Source: Oscillospiraceae bacterium
GTDB lineage: Bacteria; Bacillota; Clostridia; Oscillospirales; Ruminococcaceae
NCBI GenBank assembly: GCA_045628605.1
Contig: JAZQPR010000262.1
Location: 449-64,448 of the forward strand
DNA length: 64,000 nt
Direction: 5' to 3'
The translations under genes and the position numbers were made by a program. The number at the start of each line of letters is the position of its first letter. Position 1 is the first letter of the stretch. Shown here piece by piece: positions 12,316 through 64,000 of the stretch. Below the pieces are notes generated by a model. The model was not told the DNA's origin, made no database searches, and saw only the letters and a program-made list of their open reading frames with translations.

Positions 12316-15300
12316 ATGAGTCAGAATTTCGGAGAAGTTCCGTTTTCCGATGAGATATTCTTAAAATCTAAAATAGGAATCTGGGCATTTGAACTTGATG
12401 AAGGCTGTGAGCCCAGGATGTATGCTGATGAAGCAATGCTGTATCTTCTGGGAGTTCATGAAGATCTGACTCCGGAACAGCTTTATCATGAATGGTATGA
12501 CAATATTGATTTTGAAAGTTATCCGCTTGTTGCAGAAGCGGTCAATAAAATGGTTTCAGGTGTTCATGCTGAGGTACAGTATCCATGGAGGCATCCTGTT
12601 TTAGGTCCTATTTTTGTCAGATGCGGCGGAGTAAGAAATTATGTTTATACAAAGGGCATCAGAATAGAAGGATGTCATCAGGATGTTTCGGAAGTAATTC
12701 ATTTTCAGAAAAAGGAACTTTCTGAATACAGTAATATTTTGAATATTATGTCTTCGGACGCACTTCTTATATTAAGTATTGATTTTGAAACAGGAAGACA
12801 GAAGATCTTTAACGGGATCGATACTTACACCAGATTTATATCAGAACATAAAGAAGGCGCAACTTTTGAGAGAAATATAGAGTTCTTAAAAAATATCTGC
12901 ATAGAAGAGGACAAAGATTATCTTTTGAATGCCCTTAGTCATGAAAACGTTGCTAAAGCGCTTAAGAACAATGATAATTATTCTGTAACTTTCAGACAGC
13001 GTTTCAACGGAACGATCAGATGGGATCAGATCAGATATATCAGGTATATAACAGCAGAAGGCCATAACGGAGCTATCGTGGTTCTCAAGGACAAAACCAA
13101 TGAATATCTTGATGAATTAAAGAAAATCGAAGAGTTAAGTGTTATTTCCGCTCTTTCAGAGGATTTTATTTTCATTTCATATATAAACATGATGAACAAT
13201 TCATATACTGTCTACAAATGTGATGAAAACACGACATTTGACAGTAACCTGATCCGGTCGTTTTCATTTTCGGATTTTATTTCTTTCCTTGCTCAGAATA
13301 TTGTTATTCCGGAGGACAGAGAAAAATTTACTGAAGAAACATCATTTGATTATATTAAAGCTCATGTAATAGACAACAGAAATTTTTCAGTCCTTTTCAG
13401 ATCGCTTTATTCAGGAAAGATCCACTATGACCAGTTAAAATTTGTTCCGGTACTCAGTAATGACGGTCTTATCGGCATAGTCTGCGGTTATCATAATATT
13501 GATGAAGAGTATGCGAGAAAAATAGAGATCGAAGAGGAACACAATACCTTCAGTCAGCTTGCCGGAAATTACATCACTGTAAATTATGTTGATCTTGAAA
13601 GGGACTATATCCATACTTTTTCCACTCAGTATTCAAAAGAAACCGGAATAAGCAAACACACTTCATTTTCTCAGGTGATTTCATATTACATTAAAAGATT
13701 CGGTCCTTCAAAAGATATTGAATCTTACAGCAGAATGATATCTCCGGATTCTATTGTTGAACATCTGAAACATCAGAAATCAATTTCTTTTAACTGTCCG
13801 TGTACCCTGAACAATCAGGAAAAAACATTCAGATTTGAGATAATACGTATAAACGATGATCCTACAAAAGTCATTCTCTGTATGTCCGATATTACTGATG
13901 TAATAGAAAATGAGCTTTCTGTTCAGCGAACTCTTCAGGACAATCTGAAGGCTATCGAGGGACTTGCAAGAGAATATGACATTCTGCATTTTCTTAATCT
14001 TCAGAACAATGATTACAGACTTTTCTTTATTTCTGAAAAGCTCGCAAAATGGTATCCGCATCTGACAAACAGTGATAATCAATTTGAAAATGTTCAGAGA
14101 GATATCATAAACTATATGTGTCATTCTGATTATAAGGAAATGATGCTCAAATATGTATCAAAGGAAAATATCAGAGATGAACTGAGAAACAAGAAGAAAT
14201 CATATATCCGGTTCCTTGGTCTTATAGACGGTGAGTACAAATGGTGCGATCTTGTTCTGGTTTGTCTTGAAGAAGAAAACGGTTTCCCTTTGAAGGTTGC
14301 CATCGGATATGTAAATGTAGATGAAGAAGTCAAGGAAAAGATGAAAAAGGAAAATGCCCTTCATGATGCATTGAATGCAGCAGAACAGGCAAACCGTGCA
14401 AAGACAACGTTTCTTAATAACATGTCTCATGATATCCGTACACCTATGAATGCAATTATAGGATTTACCGGCCTCGCTTCATCTCATCTTGACGACAGGG
14501 AACAGGTAGAGGATTATCTTGAAAAAATAAGGCAGTCTTCGGACCATCTGCTTTCTCTTATCAACGATATTCTTGATATGTCAAGAATCGAATCAGGAAA
14601 AGTTACTATTTTTGAAAAGAAAGAAAATCTGTCAGATATTATTCATACTATAAAAGATATTGTTATGAACGATATAAACAGAAAACATATGCATTTTACA
14701 ATTGATTCTTCAGAGATAATCCATGAAGATATTTACTGTGACAAGCTCAGGATAAATCAGATACTTATAAATATTTTATCAAACGCGGTAAAATATACAA
14801 ATGAATACGGAACCATATCAATGAAGCTGAGTGAAACGATTTCTCCGAATTGTCAGTCAGCAAAATATGTTATAAGCATCAAGGATAACGGTACAGGAAT
14901 GAGCGAAGAATTCCTGCGGACCATCTATGAACCTTTTACACGTGTAAAATCATCTACAGTATCCGGAATTCAGGGCACAGGACTCGGAATGACGATTACG
15001 AAAAACATTGTTGATATGATGAACGGTACTATAGATATAGAAAGTCATGAAAACTTCGGTACAAATGTTACACTGTCGTTTGACTTCAGAATAGATGATT
15101 CTGTTCCGGTCAAAAAAGTTATTCCTGAAATTAAAAATCTGAGATGTCTGATCATTGATACTGACGGCGAGACATGCTGGAATGAATCAAAGCTTGCTTC
15201 AGGCTTCGGGATGCGTCCTGACTGGTGTACAAGTGCCGACGAGGCTCTTCAGATCGCGATGAAGGCAAATGAACTTGGTGATCCGTACAGCTTTTATCTT

Positions 15301-15945
15301 ATGGAAAGATCAGTTCCGTGCATGGATCTTCTTGGTACCATCAACAGCTTTGTAAATATTTCGGAAGACTGTAAACCTTTGTTTTTTATTACAGGATACT
15401 ATCTGTCAGACGTAAAGGATGCAGCATTAAAGGCAGGCGTGACAGGACTTATCAGCAAACCTATTTTTGTTTCTGATTTTTACAAAGCTTACCAGAAGTA
15501 CTGCGGAACTGCTTTGCAGGAAACTGTAAAGAATAATAAATACAACTTTAAAGGAAAGAGTGTTTTGCTGGTTGAAGACAATCAGCTTAACAGTGAAATA
15601 GCTTATGAGCTTCTGCGTGAAGCAGGTTTTGTTGTAGATACCGCTTTTGACGGAACAGTTGCTGTAGAAAAGGTAAAAAATGCTTCTGAAAGTACTTATG
15701 ATATTATTCTTATGGATATTCAGATGCCTGTAATGGACGGATATGAGGCTTCAAGACGTATAAGAGCGCTGGACAAACCGTTTGCAAGGACCATTCCGAT
15801 AATTGCGGTTACTGCAAATGCGTTTGTTGAAGATATCAAAGAATGTACCGAAGCCGGTATGAACGGTCATATTTCCAAACCGATATACGTACAGAACCTG
15901 TATGATGAGCTCAAAAGGATTCTTGATCTTGATAATTCAGTTTAA
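12316..15945 (+). CDS. Hybrid sensor histidine kinase/response regulator, cytoplasmic, multi-PAS-like
   Basis: ~680-aa N-terminal sensor region without TM segments. H-box [17 protein letters not shown], HATPase ([14 protein letters not shown]). A degenerate receiver is followed by a canonical receiver ([27 protein letters not shown]). Confidence 0.9.
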
Positions 15946-16070
15946 TTACTGCGTTTGACGGCCGGCATCAGGTATTGCAAATTTACTGTTGTTATACGTA
16001 ATAAATTGTGTTATAATAATAAAGCGTTACTTTTGCAAATCAAATTTAAATAAAGAAGGAAAATAACACA

Positions 16071-17201
16071 ATGAATAAAAAGGAATTAAATGAGATCAAA
16101 AAGAATTTTACAGATCAGAGCGGCTTTTTCACGATAAATCAGATTTTAAAAGTATATATTGATCCTGAAAAAAACGTGAAATACAAAGATATAAAATCAC
16201 TTATAATGCTTCCTGAAGAGGAATGCGAGGTTATTCGTGATACAATGCGAAAAGTGCTTACAGGTACGATAGGAAAGAATTTCATCGAGTATGAATTCCC
16301 AAGAGATTCATATGAAAATGACGGTGCTCAGAAAATGCTTCACGATATCGTTGAAACAAAGATGAAGGATGAGGAAGCTGTTGACAGACTGATCACCAAA
16401 ATTACTGACAATATAGAATATGCTCAGTCATTTACTTTCCTTGCAGCACACTGCACATACAGCATTATGAAGAAAAATAAAAATGATGATGACGACGAGG
16501 ATAATATTACTGAAGAGTACAATTTTATGATCACTGCATTTTGTCCTGCAAACACAAGTGATGTCGGACTGTACTTTGATGAAGAAACAGGCACTGTTAT
16601 GAAAAAGGAAAACAAGGACATGATCATCAGCAAGATCCCGTCTGACGGATTTATTTATCCTGTATTTTCTGACAGAGCACCTGATGTAAATCATGTTATG
16701 TACTTCGTAAAAAAACATGATAAGCCTAATATTTCAATAGTTGAGAATATTCTTGACTGCGAGTTTACGATGTCTGCAAAGAAGCAGAAGACCAGTTTCC
16801 ATGATGTTCTCAACGCTGTCGTTTCAGATGAGCTCAACTATAATGTAATTACTCAGGTAAACGAAAAGATCAGAGAAGTTGTTGATCTCAGCAAAAACGA
16901 AACAGAAGCTGCTACCATAAATGACAAGCAGCTCAAGCATATACTTACAGAAGCAGGCGTCAGCGATGAAAAGCTGAAAGCTCTTGAGCCTGCATACAAG
17001 ACGCTGGTCGGAGATGTTGATCTTACGGCAGCTAACATTACAGATAACAGAACAGTCGTAGTAACTCCGGATGTTACTATAAATATAAAGAAAGATGCTG
17101 CTTCCAGACTAAGAACAAGTTCAATAAATGGCAGAAACTGTCTTATAATTGATCTTGATGATCCTAATATTGTAGTAAACGGACTTTCGACTCTTCTGTA
17201 A
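16071..17201 (+). CDS. Conserved hypothetical protein (possibly DUF4317 family)
   Basis: 376 aa, no TM segment or signal peptide. The family name is recalled from size and N-terminal pattern only. Confidence 0.6.
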   Translation: MNKKELNEIKKNFTDQSGFFTINQILKVYIDPEKNVKYKDIKSLIMLPEEECEVIRDTMRKVLTGTIGKNFIEYEFPRDSYENDGAQKMLHDIVETKMKDEEAVDRLITKITDNIEYAQSFTFLAAHCTYSIMKKNKNDDDDEDNITEEYNFMITAFCPANTSDVGLYFDEETGTVMKKENKDMIISKIPSDGFIYPVFSDRAPDVNHVMYFVKKHDKPNISIVENILDCEFTMSAKKQKTSFHDVLNAVVSDELNYNVITQVNEKIREVVDLSKNETEAATINDKQLKHILTEAGVSDEKLKALEPAYKTLVGDVDLTAANITDNRTVVVTPDVTINIKKDAASRLRTSSINGRNCLIIDLDDPNIVVNGLSTLL

Positions 17202-55535: not shown

Positions 55536-56072
55536 GTGCAGAAAATAAGTTATAAAATAGCTCTCGGAGGAATAATCTCATCTCTGTGTCTGGTTTGTAT
55601 GTTTATGACAGGCGTATTTCCTGTCCTGTATATTGTATTGCCGATGATGGCCGGTCTTCTGATGATGGTCATGAATGAAGAAGTGGATACAAAATGGGCT
55701 TTTCTGACCTACATAGCAACGAGCATTATTTCAATATTTGTTACGTTCGATAAAGAAGCTGCACTCCTCTATATTCTTTTATTCGGGCATTATCCCATTG
55801 TAAAGGGATATATAGACAACTTCCGGAATGGTCCGTTAAAATTTTTTACAAAATTTTTAATTTTTAATATCAGTTTTGGAATTGAAACATTTCTTGCAAT
55901 ATTTCTTCTTGGTTCAATGGAAATGTATAAACAGATACTTGAGAAAGGCAAATGGTATCTGGTGTTTTTCGTAGCTATGATAAATCTGATTTGTTTTATG
56001 TATGATTATTCTCTTGGCGGCTTTTATATTACCTACGTCAGAAAGCTGAAGCCAAAATTAAGAAGCAATTAA
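55536..56072 (+). CDS. Integral membrane protein (about 5 TM)
   Basis: GTG start after AAGGGGCAG. Hydrophobic throughout. Confidence 0.6.
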   Translation: MQKISYKIALGGIISSLCLVCMFMTGVFPVLYIVLPMMAGLLMMVMNEEVDTKWAFLTYIATSIISIFVTFDKEAALLYILLFGHYPIVKGYIDNFRNGPLKFFTKFLIFNISFGIETFLAIFLLGSMEMYKQILEKGKWYLVFFVAMINLICFMYDYSLGGFYITYVRKLKPKLRSN

Positions 56073-56080
56073 AATAATAA

Positions 56081-56111
56081 AGCCCGTACATGAGGTACGG
56101 GCTGTTTTTTT
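56081..56111. terminator. Terminator between convergent genes
   Basis: agcccgtac/gtacgggct stem followed by T-rich gttttttt. Confidence 0.8.
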
Positions 56112-56120
56112 ACATACAGA

Positions 56121-56420
56121 TCAGGTCATGTTAGGAAGAGAAATAGTTTTCTTGTTGACCTCATTTAAAAGAATGTTGGTTTTCTTTTTCAGAAGAGCTG
56201 TGTAAACAAGAGCTTTTCTCATCTCTTTTTTTATGACATATAAATCGATTCGACCTATCAGAAAATCAATGAAAGCAATTTTCTTTTCAAGTTCAGCTTC
56301 ATTTCCGGACAATAAAAGAAATCCTGTTTTATACATTACATTTTTCTGATAAAGCTGTTTGGTAATTTTGAAAACGGCATTATTTATGAATTCAGCATCA
56401 ACATTTTCTGAAACTTTCAC
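56121..56420 (-). CDS. Hypothetical protein (99 aa), last gene of the dynamin-like operon
   Basis: GTG 56420 lies 7 nt after AAGGAGGAG, and the upstream gene's TAA stop is embedded in that RBS. The track start at 56465 would overlap by 32 nt. Confidence 0.55.
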   Translation of the reverse strand: MKVSENVDAEFINNAVFKITKQLYQKNVMYKTGFLLLSGNEAELEKKIAFIDFLIGRIDLYVIKKEMRKALVYTALLKKKTNILLNEVNKKTISLPNMT

Positions 56421-56433
56421 TGCTCTCTCCTCC

Positions 56434-57561
56434 TTACTTCTGATTTCCGGCATTTGCGCCGGCATTCGTTGCCTGAATTACGGTTTTAATTTTTCCCATT
56501 GCCAGACTAAAGAGCATCTGACGAAGCTGTGTGGAGAAAAAGTTTTCTATTTTGTTGGTGAATTCGGTAACTACGTTATTTTTGTTTAAAATTTCTTTAA
56601 ATTCAAATTCATTATTTCCGGCAGACAGAACAGGATGATTTTCAAAACATCTTTCAAACTGCTTGACAGATGCATCTCTTATGAAAACATCTTCTTCTTT
56701 TAACCTGAAGTGAAGGATCTCAGAAATATAATCAAGATAAAATTCTGAAATTTCATTCATGATGTCTGACGAAGGAAACAGATACATATTTTTAAAGTCA
56801 TTTGCAAATGCGTTCCATATATCATCTGTCTGGGCAGGAATATTTCCATATTCAAATAATTTTACATATCTTGAAAATTCTTCAGGATTATTAAAAGAAA
56901 AATAATGCTCATACGTTCTTTCAAGAAATGTTTTATAGTGAATTTCAAATCTGTTCTCTATTCGGTATTGAGAACCTTTTAATTCTTTCCGGTACTTATT
57001 TTTAAAATATCGAAGATTGTTTGTTTTTACAGTTAGAATATCAGTCTTGTCATCGCCTTCAGCATATTCCTGTACTGTTATTCCGAACATTCCAAATTCA
57101 CTGTATGCTTCTTTAATGATCTTATCTGACTTTTCGATATCAGTAAATCCTGCACGTCTGTTTTCGTTAAATAAAATCACGTTTACAGATGCATTTTTGG
57201 ATTTGTTGCAAACTTTTTCGACCAGATAGTGTAAATTTTCTTTTTTGTACGGAAAATCTGCAAATATAAGTACTTTTCCAATGTTTACGTTTTGCTGGTC
57301 TGCAAGTACAGTCTTTACATCAATTCCCGAAACAGGAAATTCCAATATTCTTCCATCATGAAGTTTAGATGTATAGACAAGTATTTTTTTGTCATCAGCG
57401 ATGACGTTCTCTTCATCAGAGTGAATAAAGATATAGCTTTTGTTGATTTTTAAAGAATTGGTGTTTATTATATGGCCTGTAGGCATCAGTTCCTGTGCGA
57501 AGCGGTATCTTATGTCATCACCAAGGCAAATAATAAAATTATTACTGCAGATGTTTTTCAT
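56434..57561 (-). CDS. Hypothetical protein (375 aa), third gene of the dynamin-like operon
   Basis: ATG preceded by GGAGGA. No P-loop, TM segment or known motif recognised. Confidence 0.65.
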   Translation of the reverse strand: MKNICSNNFIICLGDDIRYRFAQELMPTGHIINTNSLKINKSYIFIHSDEENVIADDKKILVYTSKLHDGRILEFPVSGIDVKTVLADQQNVNIGKVLIFADFPYKKENLHYLVEKVCNKSKNASVNVILFNENRRAGFTDIEKSDKIIKEAYSEFGMFGITVQEYAEGDDKTDILTVKTNNLRYFKNKYRKELKGSQYRIENRFEIHYKTFLERTYEHYFSFNNPEEFSRYVKLFEYGNIPAQTDDIWNAFANDFKNMYLFPSSDIMNEISEFYLDYISEILHFRLKEEDVFIRDASVKQFERCFENHPVLSAGNNEFEFKEILNKNNVVTEFTNKIENFFSTQLRQMLFSLAMGKIKTVIQATNAGANAGNQK

Positions 57562-57589
57562 GCCTTATTAATCCTCCGATTGCGGATAA

Positions 57590-57614
57590 AACCCGCCGTT
57601 TGAGGAGGCGGGTT
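57590..57614 (-). promoter_or_regulatory. Intra-operon GC-rich hairpin
   Basis: aacccgcc/ggcgggtt stem between the dynamin-like gene stop (57631) and the next start (57561). On the mRNA it is followed by UUUUAUCC. Confidence 0.45.
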
Positions 57615-57630
57615 CTCTCCTTTTTATTAT

Positions 57631-59937
57631 TTATATAGCGATTTTACCTTTTTCTGAATCTGTGTCCGCATCAAGCGAATTTCTAACTTCTTCTATTCTG
57701 TAATACAAGCCTTTAAGGTTGCTTATCTGTCTTCTGATATTTTTGATTTTTTCATTCTTTTCATCTGAAGACAATGAAAGCTGGTGTTCCAGAGCAGCGA
57801 TATTTTTATTGATAAGATCAAAACGTCTGTTAAGGTCGTTCCTGAGAAGATTGTCAAGCTTTCCTTCAAAGTCATCTGTAAATCTGTCGATTTCTTTTAC
57901 AGCTTCGTTTGCATATGAATTTGTTCCTTCTGTATAGAAAGTTTCTATGAACATCTTCTTTTTAAGGAAGAGAGCGATATTTTCCTTGACATATCTGTCC
58001 TTGAATCCGGCACGTTTTTCATCAAGCTTTTTATGAAGTTCTGAAAGAATGGATGACTTGATGTGTATCTCTTCGTTAAGATCCTCGCTTGGCTTGCCGT
58101 TGTATTCAATAGCATTGTATTCCATGGTTTTTGCTCTTATCTGTTCAGAATAGTCGTTAAGTTTAGCTTCAACCTCACGTTTCCATGCACGTGTCTCTGA
58201 ATCATCAATATATTCTGTTGTTTCAGTGATCTTTTTCTTTTTGAAAAGCCCAAATAAGCTGAACCTTGGTTTTTCTTCAGTTGTATATACTCTTTTTACC
58301 TTAGGCTTTTCAAGACCGGCTTCATATTGCTGTTTTTCTTCTTTGAGCCTGTTGATATCATTTTTGAGTTTTGAACGTTCTTTTTCGACTCTGAGAGCTT
58401 TCATATACATGCCTGAAAGATTGTCGATTTCTTCCTGGAGTGAAGCGATTTCAGCGTTTGTTTCATTAACACTGTTCTGATACTGTTCAATTCCAAGCTC
58501 AAAAGAGTTTTCTGTCTGGTTATATTTGCAGTCAGGACAGATATTAAATTCAAATTCAGTAACAAGAATTCGAACGGAGTCCATGATATCCGGAAGATAT
58601 TTTCCGACAGCATTTGCTACATCGCTTACAAGCTTTTCTTTCAGTTCAAATGTTGCAGCACTGACACCGTTATTGATTATTGAAGGAAGGCTTTTTTCAA
58701 GCTCTATCAGTTCCTCTGTTGTCTGGAAACTTTCAAGATTTGCAAGCTGACGTCCTTTGAATAATCTTACTTTTGTAAGGGCAAAATCAAGAGCATTTTT
58801 CTTGCACTTGTCTACGTCATTGTAAATTCGTGCCTTTAATTTTTCCATCTTTTCTTCGGTTTCATGTATTTTGCCGTAAAGATCATCAATGATCTGCTGT
58901 GCTTCATTATTGTCAACGGCTGCTTCATAGATGTTGCTTTCAAGTTCAAGGTTTTTAAGGGTTTCATCAACCATTTTTGCAGCTCTTAAAGTAGGAGTCA
59001 GAAGGCTGTTTCTAGCCTTGTCCCCTTCTGTGATAAAATTCCAGAGTCCGTCTTCAAAGCTTTCCATTTTGGACATTTTTAAGAGCTTAAGCTTTTCTTC
59101 AGGTGTAAATGATGAATGTCCTCTGTATGAAAGCGGAGTTTTTGATCTTGCTACGAGAGCCTGATATGAAGATACGCACCAGAATTCAGGCATTTCTTTG
59201 GCATCCGGGAATATTTTGCCGAAATGCTTGAGCATATTCTCTGCTACTTTTTCATATGATTCGTTTTCATTATTTTTTATCTGGTCAATTTTGTTTAATA
59301 CAAAAATGATTTTGTTTGCTTTTGTTTTGATCTGACTTAAAAACTCAAATTCAGATTTTCCGCCCGGTCTGTCGGCGCTGAACATAAACAGGCAGACGTT
59401 TGATTTCATGATCTGAGCTTCTGTTATTTCTCTGTGTCCGTCGGCAGTGCCGTTAAGACCAGGAGTATCAACAAGAGTAATATTTCCGTCAAGGAACTGT
59501 GAATCAAGATAAAGATCAAGATGATTTACAGTAGCTGCAACAGGAATGTCGCTTCGTGTACTTACATATCTTGAAATGACATCTGTTTCTATACTGTCGA
59601 TATCCTCACATGTTCCGTCAGCGTAATAAACACGTCCCTTTTGCTGATTCTCGGCCTTATTTTTGTGCCGAAGCAGTGTCACCGTTGCCGTTGTTTCGTC
59701 TGAATATGACGGAAGGATTTTTTCGCCCATGAGGGCATTTAAAAATGTAGATTTTCCGACACTGAATTCACCGACAATAACGATGGAAAATTCTTCTTTA
59801 TTAAGCATTTCAATAAAATCAGATATTATTGATGCTTCTGCAGTATAATTGTTATCAGTATAAAACTTGTGAATATCATTGAGGATCAGCTGGGTTTCAG
59901 CTTTTTTCTCCTCATACTGCTGTAGATGTTTGTTCAT
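57631..59937 (-). CDS. Bacterial dynamin-like GTPase (second of tandem pair)
   Basis: G1 VGEFSVGKSTF, G3 VDTPGLNG, G4 LNKID. Long E/K-rich helical stalk. Amphipathic FSLFGLFKKKK. Confidence 0.88.
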   Translation of the reverse strand: MNKHLQQYEEKKAETQLILNDIHKFYTDNNYTAEASIISDFIEMLNKEEFSIVIVGEFSVGKSTFLNALMGEKILPSYSDETTATVTLLRHKNKAENQQKGRVYYADGTCEDIDSIETDVISRYVSTRSDIPVAATVNHLDLYLDSQFLDGNITLVDTPGLNGTADGHREITEAQIMKSNVCLFMFSADRPGGKSEFEFLSQIKTKANKIIFVLNKIDQIKNNENESYEKVAENMLKHFGKIFPDAKEMPEFWCVSSYQALVARSKTPLSYRGHSSFTPEEKLKLLKMSKMESFEDGLWNFITEGDKARNSLLTPTLRAAKMVDETLKNLELESNIYEAAVDNNEAQQIIDDLYGKIHETEEKMEKLKARIYNDVDKCKKNALDFALTKVRLFKGRQLANLESFQTTEELIELEKSLPSIINNGVSAATFELKEKLVSDVANAVGKYLPDIMDSVRILVTEFEFNICPDCKYNQTENSFELGIEQYQNSVNETNAEIASLQEEIDNLSGMYMKALRVEKERSKLKNDINRLKEEKQQYEAGLEKPKVKRVYTTEEKPRFSLFGLFKKKKITETTEYIDDSETRAWKREVEAKLNDYSEQIRAKTMEYNAIEYNGKPSEDLNEEIHIKSSILSELHKKLDEKRAGFKDRYVKENIALFLKKKMFIETFYTEGTNSYANEAVKEIDRFTDDFEGKLDNLLRNDLNRRFDLINKNIAALEHQLSLSSDEKNEKIKNIRRQISNLKGLYYRIEEVRNSLDADTDSEKGKIAI

Positions 59938-62236
59938 ATTCCAATTCCACCTTAAGTTCGTTATACATTTCTTCGATTTTCATAATTTCGTTCTTTTTAT
60001 TATTGTATCTGTTTTGTATATCTATAAGGTTTCCGTTTATTATCTCATCAAATACCTGATTCTTTTCTGTAAGTCTCTTTTTAAATTCATTTTTGATATA
60101 TCCGCTTACAAGTTCGGCATTTGTTTCTACATCTGATTCGAGTGAACTTTTGAAAAGATTTGTAATAGAATTATCTCCGTTGAACAGATATGCTTCAATA
60201 TCCTGTCTGAGCTGTTTCTTTCTGAGATTGAGATATTCGATTTCAAGTCTGTCTTCAAACATTGCAAGTTCGTCTTTTTTCGCAGCGATCTCATGGTTGA
60301 GTATATCCATTTTTCTGTTGTAGGATGCATATTCTTTGTCATGAAGCTCAATTTTTTCTTCAAGTGTACATTTTTTTGCTTCAAGATTTGAAAGCTCTCT
60401 GTTGATCGCTTCTCTTTCCTCATCAGTGCTTTCTTTGATTGCACGTTTCTTTTTATCCCATTCAAGACCTTTTGTATCATCGTACTGAGGAACCTGACGG
60501 GTAGATTTTTTCTTTCCGATAATAAACTGGAAGAGTCTTGCGATGCCTTTACGGTTTTCTTCAAATTCTTCCACGATATATGTGACATCCTCAACAGGTC
60601 TGTCACCAAGTTCGTTTTCTTTTCTGCGCTGAACTGAAACCAGTTCATCCTTTTTGTTTTTGTTATCTTCAATTTCTGAGAATATTTTTTCGATCTCATT
60701 CTTGAAGCCTTCACGCTGCTTCTTGAAATCATCAAGGAATTTCTGATTGTTCACAGCGATCTGTTCAAGCTTTTTGATATCATTTTTAATATTATCAGCT
60801 GCAAGTTCCTTGTCGATTGCTTCGGATATTTTAAGTTCTGCGTTATTCTGATCGATAACACTTACAATATCATTATATTCGTCAAGTCTTGCAAGTACTG
60901 TTTTATAAACAAGCTGGAAACAGTTTTCCTTTTTGTAGTCATATTCAGTCTGATAATTATCGATAAGCTTCTGAAGCTGTTTCTTGTACTGGTTTTTTTC
61001 AAGCTTTTCTTCGAAATCCTTGTATTCCTTTTCTGCATTTATTGTATTTGAAATGTTTTCAAATATCGCTTTGATATTTTCATCAATATCGTTGATAAGG
61101 ATTTTTTTGTTTTCATCGAAAAGCTGATTGATAAGTGAATACAGCTGCTTGAGCACATCACCCTGATTTTCATTTATGGCTTTTTTCTGAAGCTTTATCT
61201 GACTGATATCTTTGAAAGCTCTGTCCTTTAAAATTGAATTTTCGATGTCTGCCTGCTTCTTTTTTGATACCATAAGGATGTATTCCATAAGGTTCATTAC
61301 AGTATAGCAGTTTGAAATAAAGCGGTTTTTCTTAAAGTTTTCATCATTTAAAATTGATTTAAGAATTTCTATAAAAGAATCAAATTTTGATTCTTTGTAT
61401 ATCATTTTTCTTGATTCCGGAGTGATATCGCTGAAGTCATCTTCGTAAACTCTTGAAATGCTTTCATCTTTTCCGCATAATGCCTTCAGAGCGGATATTC
61501 CGGTATAATGAGTGATGAGCTTCTTCGATGTGTTATTTACAATAAATTTATTTACATTTTGTTTTATTGATGCGATCTTGTCTTCAGGATATTCTCCTTC
61601 TGATTCATTCAGTTCATCTATAAAATTGTAAATAAAAATAAATGTATTCTGATAGGTTGAGATGTATTTTATAAATTCTACATCTGTCTGAGCCAGACCT
61701 CTTTTCGGAAAGAGATAGATACATGAATGAGCCTGTTTTATCTCTTCAATTGTGAGTTCTCTGTGCTTGTCAGCAAGTCCGTTAAGACCTGGAGTGTCGA
61801 CAATTACAAGTTCTTCATCGACATCTATGAAGTTGATGAAGATTTCAACACTTTTAACTTCTCTGACAACGTCTATGTCTGACTGTGTAGTTGTATATTT
61901 TTCTATATCCTCCAGCTTTTCAAGCTTTGTTGATGTATTGTTTGCAAAATTGATAATACATGTGTTTGCCCGAGGATCATCTTTTTTTACATTGTGTACA
62001 TATGTCAGTGCAGCTGTGGTTTCAAGAGTGGCATGTTTTAAAAGATCTTTGCCTATTATTGCATTGATAAATGTTGACTTTCCTGAACTGAATTCACCTA
62101 CTACGGCAATTTTAAATTCATTTACTTCGATTCTTGACTCTATTGAGTCAATAGTATCCTTTATGTTGGTTCCGTCATGAATAACAGAATAACTTTTCAG
62201 GCTGTTAAGTCTGTCTTTTAAATCACTATTGACCAT
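59912..62236 (-). CDS. Bacterial dynamin-like GTPase (first of tandem pair)
   Basis: G1 VGEFSSGKSTF, G3 VDTPGLNG, G4 variant YNFID. E/K-rich stalk. ARLFQFIIGKKK. 26-nt overlap with the next gene. Confidence 0.88.
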   Translation of the reverse strand: MVNSDLKDRLNSLKSYSVIHDGTNIKDTIDSIESRIEVNEFKIAVVGEFSSGKSTFINAIIGKDLLKHATLETTAALTYVHNVKKDDPRANTCIINFANNTSTKLEKLEDIEKYTTTQSDIDVVREVKSVEIFINFIDVDEELVIVDTPGLNGLADKHRELTIEEIKQAHSCIYLFPKRGLAQTDVEFIKYISTYQNTFIFIYNFIDELNESEGEYPEDKIASIKQNVNKFIVNNTSKKLITHYTGISALKALCGKDESISRVYEDDFSDITPESRKMIYKESKFDSFIEILKSILNDENFKKNRFISNCYTVMNLMEYILMVSKKKQADIENSILKDRAFKDISQIKLQKKAINENQGDVLKQLYSLINQLFDENKKILINDIDENIKAIFENISNTINAEKEYKDFEEKLEKNQYKKQLQKLIDNYQTEYDYKKENCFQLVYKTVLARLDEYNDIVSVIDQNNAELKISEAIDKELAADNIKNDIKKLEQIAVNNQKFLDDFKKQREGFKNEIEKIFSEIEDNKNKKDELVSVQRRKENELGDRPVEDVTYIVEEFEENRKGIARLFQFIIGKKKSTRQVPQYDDTKGLEWDKKKRAIKESTDEEREAINRELSNLEAKKCTLEEKIELHDKEYASYNRKMDILNHEIAAKKDELAMFEDRLEIEYLNLRKKQLRQDIEAYLFNGDNSITNLFKSSLESDVETNAELVSGYIKNEFKKRLTEKNQVFDEIINGNLIDIQNRYNNKKNEIMKIEEMYNELKVELEYEQTSTAV

Positions 62237-62287
62237 TATTTCTGAACCCCTCTCGCTATAGTAATTTTTTTATGTTACTTATTAATT

Positions 62288-62316
62288 AATATAACATTTT
62301 TTAGCTATTTTGTCAA
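62288..62316 (-). promoter_or_regulatory. Promoter of the dynamin-like operon
   Basis: On the minus strand: TTGACA, 17 nt, TGtTATATT. Confidence 0.55.
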
Positions 62317-62435: not shown

Positions 62436-63410
62436 ATGAAAAAGAAAAAGATTGTACCTGTAATTGCAGCTGTTGCTGCTTTTTTATTAGCCGCTTCCGG
62501 AATTTTATATTTCGGATCAGGTGATTCATCAGCAAAAAAAATAGTTTGTCCTGATTCGGAAGTTACAGTAAAAAATTCTGAAGATTTTCTTGCAGATCAC
62601 AATTTTGATACGGACGCTTTTTTGACCAAATGGAAAGCAAGTTCTGAAAGAATAACTTATCGCTCGGTAAATAACAACAACGTCTATATTAATTATATCT
62701 GCAGTGAAAAATATAATTACAATAATCCGACAATAATATTTATCGGATCATACGGATATGATTATCAGTATCTTTTCCCTCAGGCAGATTATTTCCTTGA
62801 TCTTGGCTATAATGTAATACTGTTTGATCAGAGAGCACACGGAAACAATACAGCAGAGTCGTTTACTTTCGGTCAGGAGGAAAGTGATGACCTTGATGCT
62901 GTTCTTGATTATATATATAATAATGATCCTACAACTATGCCTCCGCTTGGTATTTACGCACAGGGTACCGGCGCTTTGTCAGCCTGCAGCAATCTTGCAC
63001 TGAACAGCAACAATTATAAATTTTTAATACTGGAAGATCCTGAACTCAACGGTCAGGAATGTGCTGAAAATATGCTTAAAAATGAAAAAGGAATTCTTCC
63101 TGAAGCGCTTCTTTTAAAATCCGGAATTTCAAGTATTGAATCAAAATATGATATTGATTTTTCAAAAATTGATTTTACGGAAACCGATGAACTTGCAAAG
63201 ACTATATTTGTTCCTGTTATGATACTGAAGCATGACAATCTCACAGAGTATTCTGTTCAGTCAGTAGAAAATTTTGAAGCAAATCTTTCTATAAGCGAAA
63301 ATAACAAATCTGTGGTTGATTTTGAAAATTCAGGATTCTTAAATGCCTTTTTTGATGAGAAAGAAAAATTTGAAGAATCCGTAAATGTTTTTGTATGGAC
63401 AAATTTTTAG
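62436..63410 (+). CDS. Membrane-anchored alpha/beta-fold hydrolase-like protein
   Basis: N-terminal anchor. LFDQRAHGNN...EESDDLDAVLDY is typical of the fold. A canonical GxSxG is not evident (IYAQGTGAL). Confidence 0.65.
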   Translation: MKKKKIVPVIAAVAAFLLAASGILYFGSGDSSAKKIVCPDSEVTVKNSEDFLADHNFDTDAFLTKWKASSERITYRSVNNNNVYINYICSEKYNYNNPTIIFIGSYGYDYQYLFPQADYFLDLGYNVILFDQRAHGNNTAESFTFGQEESDDLDAVLDYIYNNDPTTMPPLGIYAQGTGALSACSNLALNSNNYKFLILEDPELNGQECAENMLKNEKGILPEALLLKSGISSIESKYDIDFSKIDFTETDELAKTIFVPVMILKHDNLTEYSVQSVENFEANLSISENNKSVVDFENSGFLNAFFDEKEKFEESVNVFVWTNF

Positions 63411-63483: not shown

Positions 63484-64000
63484 TTAATTCAAAATTGAAA
63501 CGTACGAACTGTATTTTTCTTCAAGTCTGCAAAGTATCTCATAATAATCATTTATTCCTGAAAACATAAGAGCGTTTACAAACATATTTATTCTGTCGAT
63601 GAGCAGCCCCGTTTTGCCGGCGGTTTTATCAATATCATCGTCAATTTCAGTACATATTGTTTCAAGCTTTCCTTTACCCGAATAACCTTTTTTGGAAATG
63701 CCGAAGAATTTTTTTGCCAGACCGGTGTCATATTTGTTAAGCGCAAACAGAAGACCTATACAGTCGGCAACAGCTTCATCCCATATAATGTTGGTTTTTC
63801 TTTTGTACATATGTCTGAACGTATATCTTGTGCATGCGTTGTAGATCCTGATCTTCAATGATATATCGTTCCATTCCTCTTCAGAAAAACCGGCTTCTTT
63901 AGCTGTTATTCCGCAGTAATCACAGTCCTTGATTATAATAACTGAATCCTGATAATTTTTTTTGTTGTCAGTGAATCTTTTAAGTTCCTCTTTCCAGGAG
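63484..64000 (-). CDS. Hypothetical protein, 5'-truncated by the window edge
   Basis: The frame stays open upstream of the track TTG (63858) to base 64000 (…KEAGFSEEEWNDISLKIRIYN…). Confidence 0.6.
   Translation of the reverse strand, partial: SWKEELKRFTDNKKNYQDSVIIIKDCDYCGITAKEAGFSEEEWNDISLKIRIYNACTRYTFRHMYKRKTNIIWDEAVADCIGLLFALNKYDTGLAKKFFGISKKGYSGKGKLETICTEIDDDIDKTAGKTGLLIDRINMFVNALMFSGINDYYEILCRLEEKYSSYVSILN

Follow-up and report, generated by a model that had tools for sequence, protein, structure and literature searches.

Layout of the operon

Here, we report on an operon on the minus strand of a 64,000-nucleotide (nt) stretch of Oscillospiraceae DNA (GenBank assembly GCA_045628605.1, contig JAZQPR010000262.1, positions 449 to 64,448; hereafter the window), whose source is a gut or rumen Ruminococcus. 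The operon encodes two dynamin-like proteins (DLPs), DLP1 and DLP2, a 375-amino acid (aa) protein, g3, which is predicted to be a dynamin-fold protein without a P-loop, and a small protein, g4. The order DLP1-DLP2-g3-g4 was read from the open reading frame (ORF) listing of the window, with a promoter at the 5′ end and a terminator at the 3′ end. A sequence-only reading of this stretch had proposed a four-gene operon of two paralogous DLPs and two further genes, and the ORFs, their order, and the promoter were all found where that reading had placed them.

DLP1 (774 aa, 59912..62236) and DLP2 (768 aa, 57631..59937), both supported by the ORF listing and by Pfam Dynamin_N, overlap by 26 nt (59912-59937), the 3′ end of the former with the start of the latter. 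The g3 gene (56434..57561) is supported by the ORF listing and by an AlphaFold2 (AF2) model. The g4 gene (99 aa, 56121..56420) codes for a small soluble protein with a GTG start, called from its ribosome-binding site (RBS) and from the orthologue alignment, which begins exactly at the GTG at 56420; a longer version of 114 aa from an upstream ATG was set aside because the orthologue alignment starts at the GTG instead. The g4 RBS, AGGAGG, overlaps the TAA stop of g3, so the tight g3-g4 junction described earlier is real.

A sigma-70-type promoter with an extended −10 element (TG), TTGACA-17 nt-TGtTATATT, lies on the minus strand at 62288..62316, i.e., 52 nt 5′ of the DLP1 ATG and within a divergent intergenic region; it is the best promoter match of the region, agrees with the consensus at 11 of 12 positions, and is the same element as the one proposed before (62316..62288 in the direction of transcription). 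Taken as a class, promoter-like sites are no more frequent in the region than expected (28 versus 27.5), so that the call rests on the position and the quality of this one site. At the other end, a bidirectional intrinsic terminator (56081-56103, both strands; 9-bp stem, 6 GC, T-runs on both strands) is common to the operon and to a convergent gene for a 178-aa membrane protein.

DLP1 and DLP2

Both DLPs score above the Pfam Dynamin_N gathering cut-off of 27 (79.7 bits for DLP1 and 103.1 bits for DLP2). A sequence search against the Protein Data Bank (PDB) matched BDLP, Cj-DLP (Campylobacter jejuni), and IniA; the DLP2 matches include IniA and 5owv_A, the latter of which we take to be Cj-DLP1. 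All four G motifs of DLP2 are canonical, among them G1 GEFSVGKST (59746-59772), G3 DTPGLNG (59449-59469), and G4 LNKID (NKID, 59284-59298). DLP1 carries G1 GEFSSGKST (62072-62098), G2 ETTA, G3 DTPGLNG (61778-61798), and a variant G4, YNFID (61616-61630), i.e., NFID, in which Lys is replaced by Phe while Asn and Asp are retained. The shared G1 and G3 motifs, the NKID restricted to DLP2, the YNFID of DLP1, and the 26-nt overlap are thus all present, as the sequence-only reading had it. The NFxD variant is kept in all DLP1 orthologues, including those of the six-gene systems described below, and is therefore a family trait of DLP1 rather than a sign of decay. G1, G2, and G3 are invariant in an alignment of 18 DLPs of the family, and DLP1 and DLP2 are predicted to be active GTPases.

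The C-terminal parts of DLP1 and DLP2 consist of Glu and Lys to 24-27%, which agrees with the long E/K-rich stalks that had been noted, and each protein has a paddle-like patch: IARLFQFIIGKKK in DLP1 (aa 565-577, 60506-60544) and FSLFGLFKKKK in DLP2 (aa 559-569, 58231-58263). The two patches, whose similarity had also been noted, occupy the same alignment columns, where orthologues of DLP1 and DLP2 throughout the family retain a hydrophobic/basic patch. We regard them as putative membrane-binding paddles. By analogy with other operon-paired bacterial DLPs, we infer that DLP1 and DLP2 may form a heterotypic pair.

Structural model of g3, and g4

Searches of g3 and g4 against Pfam, NCBIfam, PADLOC, and PHROGs gave nothing significant, and g3 had earlier been described as a protein with no recognizable motifs. 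That description has to be revised in light of the predicted structure, which points to a truncated, P-loop-less member of the dynamin superfamily. The final model was produced by AF2 on a 68-sequence alignment, with a predicted local distance difference test (pLDDT) score of 92.5 and a predicted template modeling (pTM) score of 0.78; it replaced a first AF2 model built from close homologues only (pLDDT 67.6), in which the N-terminal half was poor and the Foldseek matches were only suggestive. In the final model, an N-terminal alpha/beta domain (aa ∼8-176), with strands at aa 8-14, 43-48, 52-55, 59-64, 71-75, 93-101, 125-131, and 162-166, is followed by a helical bundle (aa ∼182-372).

The best Foldseek match of g3 in the PDB is C. 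jejuni DLP2 (5oxf_C/5owv_C, E = 4e-6, probability 1.0), after which come, in this order, the MFN2 and MFN1 minimal constructs, Nostoc BDLP, EHD4, and GIMAP7, and then Rab/Ras/Rag; over the range of Cj-DLP2, MFN1/2, BDLP, EHD4, and GIMAP7, the E-values run from 4e-6 to 7e-4 and the probabilities from 0.95 to 1.0. In a separate structure library of viral models, giant-virus dynamins are the top g3 matches.

A P-loop of the form GxxxxGK[ST] was found in none of the 70 full-length g3 family members examined. In the model, strand 1 (aa 8-14) passes into helix 1 (aa 17-24) through just 2-3 residues (G-D-D), and the family motif at this degenerate G1 reads hhhhGD(K)S(R/K)YxF; in the window it is CLGDDIRYRF (57499-57528, minus strand). 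DFPY stands at the DxxG position (ADFPY in place of DTPG, 57247-57261, minus strand), and NENR stands at the NKxD position. With P-loop, DxxG, and NKxD all lost, g3 would be a pseudo-GTPase. We conclude from the model that g3 is most probably a truncated dynamin-superfamily pseudo-GTPase, composed of a G-like domain and a neck-like bundle, with no trunk tip and no paddle. It would be a dedicated non-catalytic subunit.

The small protein g4 is the last core gene in every variant of the system, and it is present after g3 wherever that stretch is readable. It shares 30% identity (E = 5e-8) with the product of the last gene of a six-gene locus (L023), and the small terminal proteins of all variants align, with the common motif [KR][KR]A[LV]xY. 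Profile comparison showed no relation between g4 and g3.

Conservation of the four-gene unit

Among 5.8 billion clustered proteins, 27 close homologues of g3 were found, all from Ruminococcus/Oscillospiraceae, and the 14 genome matches of g3 are without exception rumen or gut Ruminococcus/Oscillospiraceae metagenome-assembled genomes. The order DLP1-DLP2-g3-g4 is kept in all 14 of these genome loci, which belong to other Ruminococcus/Oscillospiraceae species, with identities to the window of 71-98% for DLP1, 69-98% for DLP2, 58-95% for g3, and 40-87% for g4; conservation of all four in order over 14 loci indicates that the genes are real. Our set of four-gene loci comprises L001-L017 (17 loci, 16 distinct), and it includes a distant clade (L002 and L016) in which g3 is only 37% identical and the order is the same.

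Across four-gene and six-gene loci together, g3 sits directly 3′ of the DLP array in each of the ∼40 loci in which the upstream side can be read. The g3-DLP linkage is essentially absolute, and g3 and g4 are true partners of the DLPs, not passengers. The co-occurrence of the two accessory genes with the DLP pair, which had been put forward as a check, is thereby borne out. In the Ruminococcus clade, the flanks are syntenic as well, with a DUF7005 gene upstream and the convergent 178-aa membrane protein downstream: here the four-gene locus is vertically inherited in a non-defense neighborhood.

Six-gene relatives with three DLPs

An exhaustive profile search with the g3 alignment against 1.84 billion representatives retrieved 83 relatives (clusters at 50% identity) of ∼340-400 aa, matched over their full length; a further protein search with a broad g3 alignment, which was too diverse for locus scanning, added nothing. 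The relatives lie directly behind tandem DLPs in L018, L020, L022, L023, L046, L047, and 22 metagenome loci, and the layout is almost always DLP1-DLP2-DLP3-g3-m2-small, where m2 has 264-412 aa and the small protein 89-118 aa. This six-gene system, as we define it from L018, L020, L022, L023, and L024-L047, occurs in Clostridium butyricum (WP_394884681.1) and other gut Firmicutes; in C. butyricum, it is known from only a handful of contigs.

Orthology between the window and the six-gene loci was assigned by best BLAST matches by position, with the reverse direction checked for g4 and the small protein. Window DLP1 is 27-41% identical to the first DLP of the six-gene systems, DLP2 is 30-37% identical to the second, and g3 is 20-29% identical to the six-gene g3. 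In the window, orthologues of DLP1, DLP2, g3, and the small protein at the end thus follow one another in this order, and DLP3 and m2 are absent from the window and from all 17 four-gene loci, which makes the window operon a reduced variant of the six-gene system. An undescribed four-component variant had been suggested before; the conserved four-component unit holds, but the idea that it extends a two-gene system does not. Instead of being a two-gene set that has grown, the operon is a six-gene triple-DLP system that has shrunk to four genes.

As to the two components that the window lacks, DLP3 (in L018, L020, L022, and L023) has the P-loop GQFSSGKS and a G4 of the form T[KHF]xD, and at the paddle position it carries a Gly/Ala-rich hydrophobic insert of 60-100 residues, e.g., PSQVLKRLGTMVDVATLFIPGKAYTTAAAKAGK (alignment columns ∼600-700); it is probably the membrane-anchored subunit of the six-gene systems. 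m2 is helical, with weak matches only, to tape-measure and apolipoprotein-like models. The possibility that m2 is a second g3 paralogue found no support, as profile comparison shows no relation of m2 to g3; it shows none to the DLPs either.

The surroundings of the six-gene loci differ from site to site. In 5 of the 11 six-gene loci with flanks, the operon is preceded on the same strand by a WYL regulator gene, and the neighbors include NERD/DEAD helicase, Schlafen/AlbA_2, AAA-ATPase_like/PDDEXK_9, NB-ARC and Pkinase-NB-ARC STAND, PARG, SocA/Panacea, and BnzB genes. Some insertion sites adjoin a tRNA synthetase and a release factor, or an M18 peptidase, and others are located behind regulators. 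In L046, a gene for a 674-aa patatin-like phospholipase (12446-14470) overlaps the stop of the small core gene; upstream of that operon is a Pkinase/NB-ARC gene, whose 1,437-aa product is truncated where the locus ends, along with genes for an HTH_3 regulator and a radical SAM enzyme and a gene of the GreA/GreB-like type. In C. butyricum L018, an HSP70-family gene is found upstream (1-367), and the downstream side (13445-17116) codes for a PP2C phosphatase, an unknown protein of 445 aa, and an NB-ARC/TPR protein of >1,400 aa. In the metagenome contigs L043 (3196-7585) and L044 (3620-5184), DLP1, and in L043 also DLP2, is split into several short ORFs, whereas no such breaks are apparent in DLP3, g3, or m2; the broken ORFs reflect either decay of the system or frameshift errors of assembly.

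Comparison with known dynamin systems

The operon had been labeled Eleos-like in the sequence-only reading, a label that a comparison of scores does not bear out. In NCBIfam NF041922 (LeoA/HP0731), DLP1 reaches 21.2 bits against a cut-off of 325, a 15-fold shortfall, and DLP2 has no match; the PADLOC LeoA and LeoBC models give 32-71 bits at ∼12-69% model coverage, scores that were read without PADLOC's own thresholds; and LeoA was not found among the PDB sequence matches of the DLPs. Eleos is a system of two genes (three if LeoBC is split), whereas here four genes are conserved as a unit, and six in the relatives. Eleos is reportedly enriched next to known defense systems, with a defense-island score of roughly 60%; the window and the 14 syntenic loci have non-defense flanks. 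What the operon does share with Eleos, or 'Dynamins' (LeoA and LeoBC; Millman et al. 2022; leoABC of enterotoxigenic Escherichia coli), is the tandem arrangement of DLP genes in one operon with intact phosphate-binding motifs, in contrast to which stand the family-wide NFxD of window-type DLP1, the pseudo-GTPase and small subunit that Eleos does not have, and the location outside defense islands. Two-gene DLP operons protect against jumbo phages, and this defense needs both P-loops (10.1101/2022.05.11.491447). On these sequence comparisons, Eleos membership is not demonstrable and there would be resemblance only.

The C. jejuni DLP1/DLP2 heterotetramer (5owv/5oxf; PMC6104087) is likewise a pair of heterotypic DLPs from one operon, and its DLP2 is the best structural match of g3. 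The two C. jejuni proteins are full-length nucleotide-binding DLPs with no reported accessory genes, in contrast to g3, which is half that size and has no P-loop, trunk tip, or paddle. DynA of Bacillus subtilis, a fused double DLP, resembles the window pair in its two cooperating DLP modules and in being chromosomal and vertically inherited, and NCBIfam DynA is the best, though weak, match of DLP1 and DLP2 (40-55 bits, cut-off 1,600); it differs in being a single polypeptide of 1,187 positions with no partner genes. DynA is reported to delay phage lysis (PMC8844932) and to protect against phage and pore-forming agents (PMC8844932, PMC12998192).

The mycobacterial iniBAC operon (IniA, IniC, and the small IniB) also combines two DLPs with a non-GTPase partner in a stress-related operon, and it differs from the window operon in gene order, phylum, and regulation. 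IniB is likened to g3 and g4 here on general grounds; we noticed no sequence relation between IniB and g3 or g4, and no search was aimed at one. The two-domain layout of g3 equals that of the crystallized mini-mitofusins (G domain and HD1 of MFN1/2), with the difference that the MFN constructs bind GTP and g3 is without the entire P-loop. In the GMS/GKS logic of the IRG proteins, a GTPase-fold protein with an altered nucleotide site (IRGM) regulates its catalytic paralogues. The likeness of g3 to MFN and IRGM is meant as an analogy of mechanism, and we claim no homology beyond the superfamily.

For g3, g4, and the DLP3-type and m2-type proteins, there is no model in PADLOC-DB 2.0, Pfam, or NCBIfam. 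The papers that we searched yielded no account of multi-DLP operons that have accessory genes or are under WYL control, nor of g3, g4, or the six-gene form, and a survey paper on WYL does not mention dynamins.

Neighborhood of the operon and the DLP2-g3 spacer

The convergent gene next to g4 (55536-56072, plus strand) encodes a 178-aa multi-pass membrane protein with a weak DUF2232 match (17 bits). It adjoins the operon in each of the 13 Ruminococcus-clade loci long enough to include this position, but not in the distant four-gene clade (L002); the adjacency could be plain synteny or a functional link. On the other side, the DUF7005 gene (63484-64000, minus strand) lies upstream of the operon in all syntenic loci; it was considered as a pseudogene and this was dismissed, as the gene is intact and merely runs past the window end. 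An alpha/beta-hydrolase gene (62436-63410, plus strand) stands between DUF7005 and the operon in some species only. Positions 1-52000 of the window hold housekeeping and metabolic genes, including three response regulators and histidine kinases, pyruvate kinase, AMP-binding, ketosynthase/thioesterase, and TerD-domain proteins; one ORF there has a strong PADLOC dGTPase match (E = 9e-63), and two match the candidate models PDC-M51A and PDC-M43B.

A GC-rich minus-strand hairpin with UUUUAU after it (57580..57620; −22.4 kcal/mol, z = −3.2) lies in the 69-nt spacer between DLP2 and g3. Partial termination and stabilization of the RNA are possible roles for this hairpin, and it could reduce the expression of g3 and g4 relative to the DLPs. 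A conserved attenuator is ruled out, since the hairpin is absent from the 95%-identical L015 and from most other loci, which have unrelated hairpins or nearly no spacer at this junction. An Rfam scan of the window found no RNA family.

Discussion

We consider the following model slightly better than evenly supported: DLP1 and DLP2 would form a GTP-driven machine that tethers or seals membranes, g3, together with g4, would regulate or adapt its assembly by mimicking a G domain or a neck, and the machine would protect an attacked membrane, being resident in Ruminococcus in the way that DynA is in B. subtilis. In this model, the operon product would be a four-subunit dynamin-type membrane machine. 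g3 would most likely dock on a DLP through the G-interface or a neck-like contact, and would act as a regulator or adaptor that times GTPase assembly, possibly together with g4. When the envelope is attacked, with phage infection as the leading candidate for such an attack, the active complex would serve to tether, seal, or remodel the cytoplasmic membrane. The Ruminococcus form, vertically inherited and with a strong promoter of the housekeeping type, would be a resident membrane-protection module comparable to DynA and not a gene of mobile islands. In short, the operon may defend or repair the cell membrane.

A conflict or defense role for the family is suggested by its rare and patchy distribution, the varied insertion sites, the WYL regulators, the defense-type neighbors, the patatin gene, and the DLP precedents. 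A defense candidate had been proposed from the sequence as well, and this idea fares differently in the two forms: the six-gene relatives do have defense-type neighbors, but the window locus is not in a defense setting and its synteny is that of housekeeping genes. Because of this conserved housekeeping synteny, a defense reading of the window leans on the six-gene relatives. Extended to these relatives, our proposal would be that DLP1-DLP2-(DLP3)-g3-(m2)-g4 is an unrecognized multi-dynamin family of Clostridia serving immunity or membrane protection, that g3 controls dynamin assembly in it, and that the Ruminococcus operon is a domesticated minimal version; we put this forward tentatively, as somewhat short of an even chance.

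Several observations weigh against the proposed membrane-protection machine. The window neighbors are non-defense genes (DUF7005, alpha/beta hydrolase, the DUF2232-like membrane protein, a DUF5620 protein, and a radical SAM enzyme), and synteny kept over 14 species also fits a housekeeping role. No g3 relatives were found in IMG/VR viral contigs, phage records, or plasmids, and a phage- or plasmid-borne origin was dismissed for that reason. What flanks the six-gene loci is a mixture in which housekeeping genes are numerous, and our neighbor list is descriptive, without a control set. On the structural side, the dynamin homology of g3 would stand on one AF2 model; its TM-scores are low, at ∼0.3, as would be expected from superposing a two-domain protein of 375 residues on DLPs of 600 residues with other hinge angles; and hhalign of the g3 family with the DLP family gives a probability of 0.2%, i.e., no sequence-profile similarity, so the relationship is seen in structure only. 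No transmembrane segments were found in DLP1, DLP2, g3, or g4, and it is the sequence position of the putative paddles that suggests membrane binding. It is likewise gene linkage that suggests a physical contact of g3 and g4 with the DLPs, and the proposed function of the family is reasoned from sequence.

The points about synteny carry over to the explanation that the operon serves housekeeping membrane dynamics with no dedicated phage role, e.g., membrane repair, remodeling of the division or sporulation septum, or the release of extracellular vesicles, which we find unlikely but worth serious attention. Vertical inheritance over 14 Ruminococcus/Oscillospiraceae species beside non-defense neighbors, the constitutive-type promoter, and the lack of copies on phages, plasmids, and viral contigs would all suit it. 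Roles of this kind are known for other DLP pairs: in Streptomyces, DynA/B take part in sporulation septation. IniA/IniC are reported to act in vesicle release (PMC10240201). It is the family as a whole that argues the other way: with 83 clusters among 1.84 billion representatives and a handful of C. butyricum contigs, it is very rare and patchy, and such rarity is not expected of a core function of cell biology; its six-gene members lie at differing sites, behind WYL regulators, beside STAND, Schlafen, or NERD genes, and the operon of one member includes a patatin gene.

If, instead, the operon were a plain Eleos (LeoA/LeoBC, 'Dynamins') anti-phage system, the two downstream genes would be unrelated passengers. 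In gross layout, the tandem DLP operon does match the two-gene system of Millman et al., PADLOC LeoBC matches both DLPs (E = 3e-19 for DLP1 and 2e-20 for DLP2) and LeoA matches DLP2 (E = 1e-19), and an automated pipeline might assign the label. These matches are low in bits, however: 67-71 for models that are 559-601 positions long, which is what a similarity of the G domains would be expected to give. The missed NCBIfam LeoA cut-off and the lack of LeoA among the PDB matches add to this. Nor do g3 and g4 behave as passengers, being co-inherited in every locus down to 20-30% identity and translationally coupled, and the window locus is not in a defense island; we regard this explanation as improbable. 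The patatin phospholipase gene that overlaps the operon end in one relative would fit yet another logic, that of abortive infection, in which activated DLPs damage the membrane of their own cell, and g3 and g4 serve as inhibitor or antitoxin. Mimicry of a G domain would make a pseudo-enzyme a plausible stoichiometric inhibitor, and g4 evolves fast (40-62% identity, versus 71-79% for DLP1), as immunity or sensor components often do. But the patatin gene occurs in 1 of ∼30 six-gene loci, no DLP is known to act as a toxin, and the Ruminococcus form is stably inherited with a strong promoter and no obvious regulator, so that toxin logic is, in our view, very improbable.

Returning to the membrane-protection machine, operons of bacterial DLPs are known, and what would be new here is a regulator-like pseudo-GTPase and a small partner as their conserved components. 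For the questions of how bacterial dynamins are regulated and how Eleos and DynA block phages, a pseudo-GTPase and a small partner would offer two handles on DLP assembly. For genome annotation, it should be kept in mind that pipelines may label such loci 'Eleos' and overlook two (or four) extra components. The six-gene, four-gene, and patatin-bearing forms constitute a natural deletion series, and since C. butyricum is cultivable and carries a six-gene relative, the idea is directly testable. If it is true, bacteria would have their first example of a dynamin machine with a pseudo-GTPase as a dedicated subunit, and this would be a prokaryotic parallel to the regulator/effector GTPase pairs of eukaryotic cell-autonomous immunity.

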